Shown piece by piece: positions 13,766-31,006 of a stretch of DNA of 64,000 bases. The stretch's first letter is position 1, and every line of letters begins with the position of its first letter. The stretch lies in contig JASGHG010000001.1 of assembly GCA_047602425.1 (NCBI GenBank), positions 4,832,001-4,896,000 of the forward strand, given 5' to 3'. The notes below the pieces were generated by a model. The model was not told the origin of the DNA. It did no database searches and worked only from the letters and a program-made list of their open reading frames with translations. A program made the position numbers and the translations under genes. Origin of the DNA: Nibricoccus sp. (GTDB lineage Bacteria > Verrucomicrobiota > Verrucomicrobiia > Opitutales > Opitutaceae).

Positions 13766-14140
13766 TTAACCGTGCTCAAAAACATTGTGCACAAGCGTTC
13801 GCGCATCATTCAGTAAATCGCCAATCTTTAATCGTTCGAAACACGACTCTTTGCCGCAGGCGATACACAACGCAATAAGATGCAGCATAGCTCCCTGGAG
13901 TAATACTTTCAGGGACTGGTTGTTAGATTCCGACCAAAAATTGAATGCTGCTACAGCAAATTTTTGTAACGGCTCAGGATCGATGGTTATCATATTTGAT
14001 GCCGATTCCTTCATCCCAGACATAAGCCCAGTCTCTTTCTCAAGAAGATGAACGTCTCCTAAGAAGGCCAAAGCCACAACGTTACTTGGCCACCAAATGG
14101 TGCGATCACTTTCTTTGATGTTTTCAAAAATGTAGCTCAT
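13766..14140 (-). CDS. Probable immunity protein for the Rhs toxin (resembles DUF6086)
   Basis: Small AT-rich ORF whose ATG overlaps the Rhs stop (TAATG); MSYIF..IWWPSN..A..F pattern recalled for DUF6086. Confidence 0.7.
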   Translation of the reverse strand: MSYIFENIKESDRTIWWPSNVVALAFLGDVHLLEKETGLMSGMKESASNMITIDPEPLQKFAVAAFNFWSESNNQSLKVLLQGAMLHLIALCIACGKESCFERLKIGDLLNDARTLVHNVFEHG

Positions 14141-17100
14141 TAATTTGTTCCCCAATCTAGACGGATATCAACGTTCGGATTCTTTGAACGCAAATCTTGA
14201 ACGGCTTTTTCGATTGCCTCTTTGAGAGCATTGTCAGCGGGTAAGCCATCAAATTTGAATCCAATCGGAGCATTTTCATAACCAGGCATAGCTGCCCTCG
14301 CTTCCATGTATTTATCGAATTTACCGTAGATATTCTTATCGACCCATTTAGAATTATCACCCGCCCAAGCGGCGGTCTTCTCCTCCCACAGTACGCCATC
14401 CTTTATTGAGTCTATATCGGTAATAGTTTGGCCATTTGGTCTATAAACGTTATAGCCAGTTTTACCTTCGAGACTACCTGTTGCTACAGGATTTACCTTG
14501 ATCGGTTTCGCATCAACAGCGGCTGTCGTAATTCGAGCGTCTGCTGTCGTCGTTCCAGTACCTTCAGCAATTTTGGCACCCCTTGTGGTGGTTAAAGCAG
14601 ATGCCTCCGCTCTCACCATGTTTGCTTCCAGCACCGGCGCAGTCGCTGCTTTGACGGTTATCGCCTCAATCAGTTCTGGAGCGCCAGAAGCCAACATCGG
14701 GATATTCAAAAGCCTTTCGCCATCTTGAAAAGTCTCGCTGCCAGGAATTACCTCGTTGCCAGGTTCGCCGCTATTATTGGCTCTATCAGCTGTGTCTCGA
14801 TCAACTTTATCGCAAACTAGTTTTTGCTCTTTGTCGAGGGCCTCGATGACCTTCATTTGCCCCTGATAAGCAGAGGGTGGCAACGGCCCCGGTCCCGTCA
14901 TTCCTACAGCACATTTGGCCATTCCATAGTACAGGTTAACAAACATTTTTTGAAACGCAGCCGCCATACCAGCCTGCCTACTTTTTGCATCTTCAGCATA
15001 ATACTCCCAACCGGTTGGATCGGTAAATTTCAACGGATTATTGAGAACATAGCTGTAACGATTATAGTCCTGAAGACTATTAGGGTTCTGTACGACTAGG
15101 TCCGCAGACAGCATGCGTCCCAGCAGCGGATCATAGATACGCCCGTTCATGTGAACGAAGTCGAGGTCGTCGAGCATTTCGTGGCCGGTGAAGCCGCGGG
15201 GGGTTACACTGTCGGCGCCGCCGTCGTCGGAGGCGTTGGGGCCGGTGCTGACAGGCACGCCTTCCCAGGTAAAGGGGTTGCGGCGTTGACCCCAGGCGTC
15301 TTCGCTGAACTTGCCGGGTTTGCCGCCTTTGTCGGTGGCGATGGCGCCCGTGCCGTGAAGTGTGGTGGCGGTGATGGAGCCAAGGTGGTCGTAATGGTAG
15401 ACGACGGCCTTCTCCTGCTGGCCGGTTCCGGCTCCGGGATTAAATTCTCTCGCTCCGATGATGCCGTCGGGGCCAGGCACGTAGATGCGCACGGTATCTA
15501 GCAACCAGTTTTGGGCGGAGCTATTGGTATCGGTATTCTGGTTCGCGTAGTTGAGTTCGAGAGTGGAGCCGAGGGCGTAGAGGCGCTTGCGGTTATAGTG
15601 CAATGGCGTCTGGTTGGGTGCGGCACCGGTCATGCTGTCGAACTCGCATTGGATGACGCGCGAGCGGTTGGCATTGTAGTGGAACTCGCTTCCGGCAGTG
15701 GTGGTGGCGGTGGTCTTGGCCATCCAACGGGGTTTGTCGAAGCCGGCCCATTTCATGGACCAGGTAGTGCCTCCGCCAATACGGGTGAGAAGATTGCCGT
15801 TAGCATCGTAGGTGATCGCCGTGGTCTGACTGTTGAAGGTATAGCTGGAGACAGCGTGCGGATGGGTCGAATCGTAGGCGTTGATGGTTACGTTTTGGCC
15901 ACCGACTTCGGTCTTGGAGGTGATGTTGCCGTTGGGTTGGTAGGCGGCGATAGTCGAGCCGTTGCGTTTCTCGAGGCGGTTGAGGTTATCGTAGCCGTAG
16001 TTTTCGCCCACGCCGGTGTCGGAGCGTGAAGTGAGGTTGCCCAAACCGTCATAACCAAAGCTCATGTTCTGCACCGAGGGCGTGGCGATGGCGGTGAGCA
16101 GGCCGTCTTCGGCGCGATAGGTGCGGGTTGTAACGTGGCTGGCGCCTTTACGGACGGAGATGATGCGGTCGAGGTAATCGTAGGCGGGCTGGTCCCACCA
16201 GGAGCGACCGAGGGAATCGGTCAGGCTGGTGAGGTAGCTCTTATTGTCGTAGCTATAGGTGTAGCCGTAGTCCTGCCAGACATAGGGCTGGGAATCAGGA
16301 TCTTCCGCGCCCGCTGGTTTCCAGAAATGGCGGACGCTGGCAGGGCGGCTGTAGGCGTCGTACTCGTGGGCGGTGTAGAACCATTTGCCATCGCTTTGGG
16401 CGAGCTCGAGCGAGGGGCGGCCCTTGGCGTCGTAGTAGTGGAGGTTAACTGCGGGAAAGGAGCCGATGGCGGTGCATTCCTCGCGCTGTGGGGCGCCGAT
16501 CCAGCCTTGGGAGTCTTTGGCGACGAGGTGCGGATAGAGGGCGACGTTGGCGGTGGTGTCGTAGTAAAAGAATCCGGCCGTTTCGGTAGATCCGTTGCCG
16601 GTCGTGGTACGTGTGAGCGGACGCCCAAGACGGTCGAAAGTGGAGGTGGTGACGTTATGCTTTGCATCTTCTTGGCGGACGACCTGGCCGACGGCATTAT
16701 TGAGGTAGGACCAAGGACCTTTGTCGGGGTCATTGAGCGTGAGCTGGCGACCAAGCGCGTCGTAGGTCGCGGTGATGGTTTGGGCCTGGTCCTTGAGCCT
16801 GGTTTCGCGCATGCGGCCGAAGCCATCGAGCCCGTAGGCGATCGAAGCGGTGGAGAGGTCGTCGACGTACCACGTGGTGTTACTCGTCGAGTCAGGGCTC
16901 GTGACGGCACTGACTGGGTTGTCAGCGTTCCAGACCGCGATGGTGCGTCCTTTAGCATCGACGTACGTGCTGTTGACCTGCGGATCGCGGTCGGGGGCGT
17001 CGACAGTGACTTGGGTGATGCGGCCGTGGTAGGCATTGGTGGTGACAGTGCCATTGGGTGCTGTGACGGTCTTAACACGGCCCATCGGATCGTAGGTAGT

Positions 17101-29960: not shown

Positions 29961-30013
29961 TTTATTAGCCACTGATTAACACTGATCTATAACAGGCAGG
30001 TATTTAAAAAAAC

Positions 30014-31006
30014 TTAGTTGGTTTGGGCTCTGAGTTTTGAGTTTTCGGCTTTGAGACTGGCAAGTTCGGCTGATTGCGCTTCAAGTTTGGCACGCTGGGC
30101 AATCTGTTCTTTCTCCTGCGCAATCACGTGCAACGTGAGCTCCTCGATCTTCGCCAAGAGAATCGCCTGCATGTTGCCAACGGAGACGCCTTTCTCGGCG
30201 ACTTCCTGCGCGGAAGGCACGCCGGGGAGGTGCTTCTCGGTTTTGATGTGCTGCTCCACTTCGGAGAGCGACTGCAACTTGTAACTATCGGCAAATACGT
30301 GGTCCGACCAGTTGGTCGTTTCGACGATCACTTCCTGCGCCCGAATCCTGCCCTTAACCGAGAGTTTTTCCGTCGGGCTCGTCGTGCCAATGCCAACATT
30401 GCCGGTAGGGTTAAGAATCATCCACGGATTGCTATAACTCGGTCCGATATATGTATAATTGAGATCGTCACCTGCACCTAAGGCCCCCCATACTACCTTG
30501 GTTTGGTTCTGGGAATTTACGATCCCGTAGCCACGAGCCCAGCCGCCTGGCGCGGTTATACGGATGGCTGCAGAAAGTTCGCCGTTGATGGCGAGGCTTG
30601 GGTGATTGTCTAGTAGCATTCCTCCTTGAGTAACGGTGAATCGTTCCGATGGGCTGGTCGTGCCAATGCCGACGTTACCGTTTTTAAGGACAGTCCAAGG
30701 AGTTGGGAAAGCTCCATTGTAACCCTCTAGGCTGAACATCGAATCTCGAGCGCTGAATTGCCATGCGGAGATGGCAGTATTATATATGCCACCACCTGTA
30801 ACCGCTCTATTGAAGCCGATTCCTGCTGTTTCGCCCGCGCGGATACTAATGGCATTCGTGTCGCCGTCAGAAATCACTAATTTATCTCCTGGATTTGTCG
30901 TTCCAATTCCCACATTTCCCGAGGAAGGAAATGTATTTTGGGCGTAGACTGCAGTTGTCATGACAAGGCTCAGGCAGATCAGGAGAGCGCAGAATTGTTT
31001 GTTCAT
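30014..31006 (-). CDS. Secreted tail-fibre-like protein 1
   Basis: Signal peptide; same architecture; first gene of the array. Confidence 0.85.
   Translation of the reverse strand: MNKQFCALLICLSLVMTTAVYAQNTFPSSGNVGIGTTNPGDKLVISDGDTNAISIRAGETAGIGFNRAVTGGGIYNTAISAWQFSARDSMFSLEGYNGAFPTPWTVLKNGNVGIGTTSPSERFTVTQGGMLLDNHPSLAINGELSAAIRITAPGGWARGYGIVNSQNQTKVVWGALGAGDDLNYTYIGPSYSNPWMILNPTGNVGIGTTSPTEKLSVKGRIRAQEVIVETTNWSDHVFADSYKLQSLSEVEQHIKTEKHLPGVPSAQEVAEKGVSVGNMQAILLAKIEELTLHVIAQEKEQIAQRAKLEAQSAELASLKAENSKLRAQTN

Follow-up and report, generated by a model that had tools for sequence, protein, structure and literature searches.

How does a secreted Rhs toxin reach its target when no injection machine is encoded beside it? 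To our knowledge, signal-peptide Rhs toxins without a link to TcA or to a type VI secretion system (T6SS) have no known way of finding a target. A locus at positions 13766..31006 (minus strand) of a 64,000-nucleotide stretch of the Nibricoccus sp. genome (contig JASGHG010000001.1; the whole stretch is called the window below) poses this question directly. The locus is genuine: ten same-strand open reading frames (ORFs), with gaps of −16 to 227 nt, comprise six fibre genes, a gene for a PKD-GCX-TSP3 protein (22608), one for an anchor-like protein (22071), an Rhs toxin gene, and a DUF6086 gene. The original prediction had placed these ten ORFs correctly, and proposed that the fibres are interchangeable adaptors that dock through a constant C-terminus onto the toxin or its accessories and set its target range.

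Genome comparisons place the fibres closest to GCX, a domain of 22608, rather than to the toxin. The conserved unit is the fibre module plus GCX, with Rhs as one cargo among several. The pairing of fibres with GCX, with or without Rhs, is beyond chance and is apparently undescribed as a system, apparently a variant of polymorphic toxin delivery.

Linkage of the fibre module and the GCX domain

Among 151 genomes of the family, which are related to one another, the constant fibre module was present in 17 and the Rhs core in 91, including all 17 with fibres. The NCBI GCX model matched 15 genomes, 12 of them fibre-bearing; two of the other three (G035 and G085) were false positives by eye, and the third (G033) carries a GCX-Rhs fusion, with a fibre fragment elsewhere only. 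With our own GCX profile, built from fibre-adjacent genes, 15 of the 17 fibre-bearing genomes had a GCX ORF starting ≤1.2 kb downstream of a fibre gene (14 from the automated tally, plus G004, which the tally missed because of ORF overlap). The exceptions were G002, whose array runs off the contig, and G110. Rhs genes lay close to the fibres in 11 of the 17, ten of them within 6 kb and one (G057) added separately. Loci L087 and L094 each encode an SpvB/FG-GAP/Rhs protein that has GCX fused to its front, uniting the equivalents of 22608 and of the Rhs toxin in one chain. Further fibre-adjacent proteins with GCX-like strands turned up in a loose search for a GF motif; these were left out of the counts.

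The same association recurred in Bacteroidota (n = 120 genomes, centre excluded), where 15 genomes had the module, 10 had GCX, and 8 had both, against an expectation of ∼1.3; computed p-values are overstated because the genomes are related. We retrieved neighborhoods for 14 of the 15 fibre genomes (29 stretches, covering part of the loci). A GCX gene lay ≤6 kb downstream of the fibres in nine genomes (13 of the 29 stretches), and an Rhs gene within 6 kb in four (seven stretches). Arrays of 8–17 fibres stand upstream of a DUF6443 Rhs with N-terminal GCX in four of five Bacteroidota genomes examined, and the fifth has a 23-fibre array with no Rhs on that contig end. As a control, 80 TSP3-bearing metagenome loci (739 kb) contained neither fibre module nor GCX; these came from a metagenome scan with the 22608 alignment, which selected TSP3 patterns and was used as a control only.

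The order fibre, GCX, cargo is kept across Verrucomicrobiota and Bacteroidota, and the cargo changes. Fibres accompany three Rhs architectures (SpvB/TcdB-type, DUF6531, and DUF6443) as well as non-toxin GCX cargo. Among the Bacteroidota cargoes are proteases (M12, M4, and C10), VPS10-like hydrolases, a lipase-like protein, and a choice-of-anchor L protein, and many of them have type IX secretion system (T9SS) tails; our own GCX profile is the sole basis for the M4, C10, lipase, and anchor-L cases. The original prediction thus stands in that recurrent, strong linkage of fibres to Rhs was found across genomes, but the tightest partner is GCX and not SpvB-Rhs, which we reject as a specific fibre partner given the range of Rhs architectures and non-toxin cargo.

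Several further features of these loci deserve mention. Three family loci (L050, L083, and L053) carry as GCX cargo an 800–900-residue non-Rhs protein whose C-terminus varies, with small genes after it; this may be a further type of polymorphic toxin. Genes of a type II secretion system (T2SS) flank the Bacteroidota fibre/Rhs loci L058, L059, L107, and L146, the last two of which also have OmpH/Skp-like genes between fibre and Rhs. Between the fibres and SpvB-Rhs of two loci (L112:4581-5033 and L113) is a 150-residue protein consisting of little beyond a T9SS sorting domain; it may supply an export signal to a toxin that has the toxic tip as its own C-terminus.

The genome itself, complete in one 5.16-Mb contig, contains a second such locus (G000:C1:1985235-2004600; L001 and L002) with nine fibre genes, a GCX adaptor, a 1988-residue Rhs protein with no SpvB/FG-GAP-like match to that of the first locus, and then two paralogous GCX genes. 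All 15 fibre genes and all four GCX genes are confined to these two fibre-GCX-Rhs loci, and the third Rhs of the genome has neither.

Fibres, adaptor, and toxin

The six fibre genes lie on the minus strand at 30014..31006 (fibre 1, 330 residues), 28875..29972 (fibre 2, 365), 27643..28848 (fibre 3, 401), 26333..27575 (fibre 4), 24866..26314 (fibre 5, 482), and 23705..24859 (fibre 6, 384). Fibre 1 illustrates the common plan of a signal-peptide-like start, capping-loop repeats, variable cassettes, the constant C-terminal module, and a long helix. As predicted, the paralogues have 3–4 GNVGIG-type repeats, dissimilar middles, and a near-invariant module of 93 residues (90–96% identical) that runs into a predicted helix of ∼54 residues. 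A signal peptide had been claimed for all six and is seen in five, signal-peptide-like starts being judged by eye throughout; fibre 4 has a frameshift inside this region, which leaves 26333-27406 open and the ATG at 27575 out of frame, reflecting either decay or an assembly error. A further stretch, also absent from the original prediction, at 23564..23632 (minus strand) may be a relic of another fibre gene's 3′ end, with weak evidence from a 29/34-nt match to a second-array fibre tail (E = 0.001).

The N-terminal parts of the six paralogues are mutually unrelated, with repeats or variable sequence right at the start, and cassettes are shared between the two arrays. Residues 27–128 of fibre 1 share 82% identity with a second-array gene over 102 residues, and a 263-residue stretch of fibre 5 shares 81% with a gene of that array. 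GC content at third codon positions (GC3) is 0.65–0.78 in the module vs 0.34–0.52 in the variable parts. Through the repeat, a six-fibre profile matched solved Bdellovibrio MAT fibre structures (8OND, E = 3e-16; 8OML, 8e-8), on which the fibre repeat superposes with a root-mean-square deviation (rmsd) of 1.1–1.2 Å over 30–34 columns; the repeats also match phage tail-fibre families. By analogy with these solved homologues the fibres are predicted homotrimers; if docked by the C-terminal module, their variable N-terminal cassettes would point outward and likely bind surface glycans, as reported for one MAT.

The module is 92% identical at the amino acid level vs 84% at the nucleotide level, and 38% of the codons for shared residues differ synonymously, a substitution pattern by which the module is under protein-level constraint. 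Its position was C-terminal in 68 of 68 full-module matches among the 120 listed of 430 long relatives; the same 120 included no fibre-GCX or fibre-Rhs fusion (one GCX match at E = 0.1 was disregarded).

The original prediction had mentioned S74-type chaperones as occurring in trimeric fibres; in the constant module, sequence comparisons detect no S74 domain. Peptidase S74 (PF13884) is not in the 25 families listed for 141 modules, the module of the locus fibres has no Pfam match, and hhalign of the module against S74 gave 6.3% (with only four S74 sequences). Assuming the register (S/P/A)D[YH]VFx, we parsed 245 of 256 distinct modules (11 unparsed) for the S74 motif SDxxxK and found Ser in 38 and Lys in 29, with the two together in none. 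The best viral fold matches of the module are S74-containing proteins and are weak (TMq 0.42–0.63, E at least 1.3e-3), a comparison with the MyRF ICA fold gave E = 2, and a separate fold search of the module returned generic long helices only (best Z 5.0). We therefore reject a working S74 chaperone. At most the module is an inactive relative of S74 and, since Ser and Lys never occur together, is likely uncleaved; the viral fold matches make an inactivated S74 origin plausible but unproven.

Directly downstream of the fibres, the adaptor candidate 22608 (22608..23477, minus strand; 289 residues) comprises a signal peptide, a PKD/Ig domain, GCX, TSP3-like repeats, and C-terminal strands, with a predicted structure of pLDDT 92.6. 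The PKD/Ig domain (residues 24–121) has a PKD fold (Z 11.9–12.1, rmsd 1.6–1.9 over 85–94 residues; fold searches of 22608 took in this domain only) and resembles the two N-terminal domains of the Rhs protein. GCX (about residues 122–192; nt 22902-23114, minus strand), which the original prediction had not noted, matches NF045639 (GCX_COOH, 3-coathanger stack) at E = 8e-8 and 32 bits vs a curated cut-off of 26. In the adaptor family (22608-22720 in the locus, and relatives P0003–P0057), the end is formed by a conserved strand, L-x-(V/I)-F-T-P-like or L-V-L-R-T-P, which may be an Rhs-docking or sorting signal.

The next gene, 22071 (22071..22583, minus strand; 170 residues), had been taken together with 22608 for a pair of exported accessory genes. 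This fits the signal peptide of 22608, but 22071 looks by eye like a protein with an uncleaved hydrophobic N-terminal anchor, followed by a Pro/Ala linker and a conserved 40-residue C-terminal segment. It has 14 relatives, and its slot between the GCX gene and Rhs is kept in L052 and L080, both with an SpvB/FG-GAP Rhs.

The Rhs toxin (14140..22050, minus strand; 2636 residues) has a signal-peptide-like start, two Ig-like domains, SpvB (residues 257–435), FG-GAP, TcdB_midN, YD repeats, and an Rhs core (TIGR03696) with DPTG at 2344–2347. SpvB, FG-GAP, and TcdB_midN all score over cut-off, and the SpvB/FG-GAP/Rhs assignment made earlier holds in every part, RHS repeats included. By this architecture the protein is a member of the TcdB/TcaC class of polymorphic toxins. 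Its C-terminal toxin region (14140..15006, minus strand) spans 288 residues, the last 166 of which form a predicted restriction-endonuclease-fold nuclease; these have no Pfam match, and language-model feature matches (Atlas) relate them to Tox-REase-5, Tox-REase-3, and CDI EC869-like domains (0.91). Rhs tips in related loci differ (Ntox10 and Fic). The small gene that had been noted to overlap Rhs does so by 16 nt (13766..14155, minus strand); it belongs to DUF6086 (Pfam E = 1.5e-15), lacks a signal peptide, and, from its position, likely encodes an immunity protein.

Family scans found no PAAR or VgrG match in the Rhs protein, and no VgrG, Hcp, TcA, or phage structural family among the 29 window ORFs scanned (ORFs up to 47.4 kb). 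The earlier statement that such genes are missing is correct for these ORFs, but elsewhere the genome has a T6SS cluster at 937–965 kb (937000-965000) with PAAR, VgrG, and Hcp, and a contractile-injection-like cluster (sheath, VgrG-like) at 4.71–4.73 Mb (4711000-4734000), about 110 kb from the locus. The three secretins of the genome are far from both fibre loci. A genome search for TcA (PF18276) was empty, with control genomes equally silent, and a T9SS search was likewise empty with silent controls. Scans for promoters (17 vs 14.1 ± 3.2) and terminators (25 vs 22.4 ± 5.5) did not exceed shuffled sequence.

Around the locus, a REP-associated tyrosine transposase-like (RAYT) gene (12422-13700) directly follows the putative immunity gene and is accompanied by direct repeats, short and degenerate, at 13415-13697; a 42% relative of it also lies near the fibre-GCX locus L053. 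Upstream of the array, a 199-residue gene (31589-32188) has a relative (31%) in a Sphingobacterium genome (L129), placed there between fibre arrays and an Rhs gene, a hint of exchange with Bacteroidota. A plus-strand ORF of 208 residues (11669-12295) combines a hydrophobic segment, a Pro/Thr linker, and a YD-like C-terminus, and has no family match and no relative among the fetched loci. The minus-strand genes at 33633-39090 lack Pfam matches, one of them (1014 residues) being weakly AsmA/TamB-like.

A model for delivery and its rivals

Because the module is constrained and retained and the Rhs linkage is recurrent, the idea of fibres as adaptors survives the test of genomic linkage. The sole common part of the fibres is the retained C-terminal module and that of the cargoes is GCX; these two are therefore the likely interface. 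We lean, with moderate confidence, toward a Sec-exported complex of Rhs, adaptor, and fibres that delivers a nuclease, in which fibres dock by their C-terminal module on GCX, variable ends pick target cells, and the DUF6086 protein confers immunity.

Under this model, Sec would carry fibres, adaptor, and Rhs across the inner membrane. The module, which is probably an S74-type chaperone that has become inactive, would trimerize the fibre and be kept rather than cleaved, and would then dock on GCX. Protein 22608 would attach to Rhs, and in some relatives the Rhs protein carries GCX itself. The complex may leave through a secretin or T2SS-type route, with T9SS serving many Bacteroidota cargoes. 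Outside, the fibres would bind surface glycans of the target, and the Rhs shell would release a self-cleaved nuclease, which the DUF6086 protein would neutralize in kin. More tentatively, the fibre module and GCX may form a general Gram-negative plug and socket, in which a dead fibre chaperone attaches exchangeable, phage-like fibres to whatever exported protein carries GCX.

A number of observations weigh against this proposal. The support for module-GCX docking and for target selection is genomic, not physical. Only half of the 32 fetched family stretches (some loci of G146 left out) have a GCX neighbor within 6 kb downstream, the other 16 being orphan fibre clusters, and 16 of the 29 Bacteroidota stretches likewise have no GCX gene in that range. 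Five fibre-bearing genomes have no GCX match genome-wide (in a search without positive control), and conversely GCX or GCX-Rhs genes occur without a nearby fibre in G033, G215, G261, and L150–L152. Many GCX cargoes are non-toxins. Three of the 15 fibre genes of the genome are frameshifted, those of the second locus being its first fibre, in the signal peptide, and its last, in the module. Moreover, our GCX profile was made from fibre-adjacent genes, which inflates the adjacency counts, and these counts are not independent since the genomes are related.

Some of these facts would suit a different role for the same contact, which we consider somewhat unlikely: it may be an export or folding device, by which fibres hitch-hike on GCX cargo and then act as surface adhesins holding the producer to its target or substrate, with no released toxin particle. 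A T9SS sorting domain often terminates the GCX cargo of Bacteroidota, and the scanned fibres matched no such family; giant surface proteins are among the GCX cargoes (L086), orphan fibre clusters are frequent, and 22071 looks membrane-anchored. Yet GCX is fused to, or encoded directly before, Rhs toxins in both phyla, arrays with 17–23 fibre variants for one Rhs locus fit target diversification, and several Bacteroidota fibre-Rhs loci lie among T2SS genes, which could export the fibres directly. It is less probable still that fibres are independent adhesins sharing variable islands with Rhs, GCX being a neutral spacer and the module only a trimerization and recombination anchor. Such islands would explain cassettes that are common to both arrays and have a lower GC3 than the module, the RAYT transposase and the gene with a Bacteroidota relative that flank the locus, and the frequency of Rhs in the family (91/151). 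They sit poorly with a fibre-GCX order kept across two phyla and unrelated cargoes, often at gaps of <60 nt, and with the count of zero for both elements (0 modules, 0 GCX) in all 80 control loci; GCX is also found N-terminal, internal, or C-terminal, positions too varied for a fixed spacer, and its presence at N-termini and in a family with no T9SS tail found speaks against a general spacer role ahead of such tails.

The genome's own injection machines offer a last explanation, in which the fibres would be tail fibres and Rhs the effector of a T6SS or contractile injection system encoded elsewhere. The T6SS and sheath clusters exist, the latter some 110 kb away, and the repeats match phage tail-fibre families. 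T6SS and contractile injection machines assemble in the cytoplasm, however, and the signal-peptide-like starts of fibres, adaptor, and Rhs argue against their use here; the Rhs protein has no PAAR or VgrG family match, and no such genes stood beside the related loci that we mapped (by eye). We regard this explanation as very improbable, and reject membership of the T6SS-delivered Rhs class on the absent PAAR/VgrG link, the signal-peptide-like start, and the location of the T6SS at another site. The earlier claim of delivery without T6SS is thus favored by the signal peptide, but, as the genome does carry a T6SS and a sheath cluster, the absence of these systems is valid for the window only.

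If Rhs-adaptor-fibre delivery is true, the locus offers candidates for a receptor-binding subunit and for a socket (about 70 residues), along with a precise interface. The fibre module and GCX, two common families without annotation in Bacteroidota and Verrucomicrobiota, would then acquire a function. Should the broader plug-and-socket arrangement hold, Rhs cargo would make diffusible fibre-guided toxin particles without T6SS, TcA, or phage, arrays of up to 23 fibres would be target-range libraries, and protease or hydrolase cargo would become addressed enzymes.

Comparison with known systems

Bdellovibrio MAT fibres are trimers with a constant ∼130-residue N-terminal domain and variable C-terminal tips, and one MAT has been shown to bind surface glycans (Caulton et al. 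2024, PMC10769870; PDB 8OND, 8OML, 8OL4). As far as the consulted text of that paper describes them, the locus fibres resemble MATs in their signal peptide, capping-loop repeats, mosaic variable segments, and many paralogues. They differ in reversed polarity, with a variable N-terminus and a constant C-terminus, and are shorter (330–482 residues), arrayed, and linked to GCX cargo. The conserved N-terminal domain that follows the signal peptide in MATs is absent from all six paralogues, and we reject MAT membership. Compared with the peptidase S74 chaperone, the module shares the C-terminal position after a fibre, the long terminal helix, and a weak full-length structural likeness to viral S74 proteins, but not a sequence-profile match, a complete SDxxxK pair, or, likely, cleavage. 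NF045639 is named as a C-terminal domain, whereas GCX here is also internal or N-terminal.

TcdB/TcaC-type Rhs toxins combine a signal peptide, SpvB, an integrin-like propeller, RHS repeats, and a C-terminal toxin with a downstream immunity gene (Zhang et al. 2012, PMC3482391). In the portions of that source consulted, this architecture agrees with the locus Rhs, including a DPxG-type motif and the overlapping DUF6086 gene as putative immunity; the same portions name no separate fibre array or GCX adaptor, and tabulate 'tail-fiber' only as a repeat type. The fibre-GCX pair further departs from that class in that its partners also include Rhs of the DUF6531 and DUF6443 types and non-toxin cargo. 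As for the Tc (ABC) toxin complex, the PF18276 search found no TcA here, its controls being silent as well. Within open full text (subscription papers, supplements, and the MAT supplementary tables being outside its scope), we found no published description of fibre arrays with Rhs, of GCX, or of the DUF6443 domain.

The closest parallel in logic is the umbrella (Umb) toxin particle of Streptomyces, in which a secreted polymorphic toxin and a small adaptor are joined by paralogues in which a protease-type domain, constant and catalytically dead, is combined with variable binding domains; orphan copies and fusions occur there too, and binding was demonstrated (Zhao et al. 2024, PMC11062931). 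To the extent covered by the excerpts of the Umb papers (PMC11062931; PMC13460014), fibres, GCX adaptor, and Rhs would follow the same logic, with binding here suggested by gene content. The parts are unrelated: in the ten proteins of the locus, Pfam detected neither ALF repeats nor a trypsin or lectin family (no search was aimed at UmbB), and the hosts here are Gram-negative, the toxin an Rhs shell, and the binders of fibre type. If the proposed delivery is true, umbrella toxins would have in this locus a Gram-negative counterpart made of unrelated parts.

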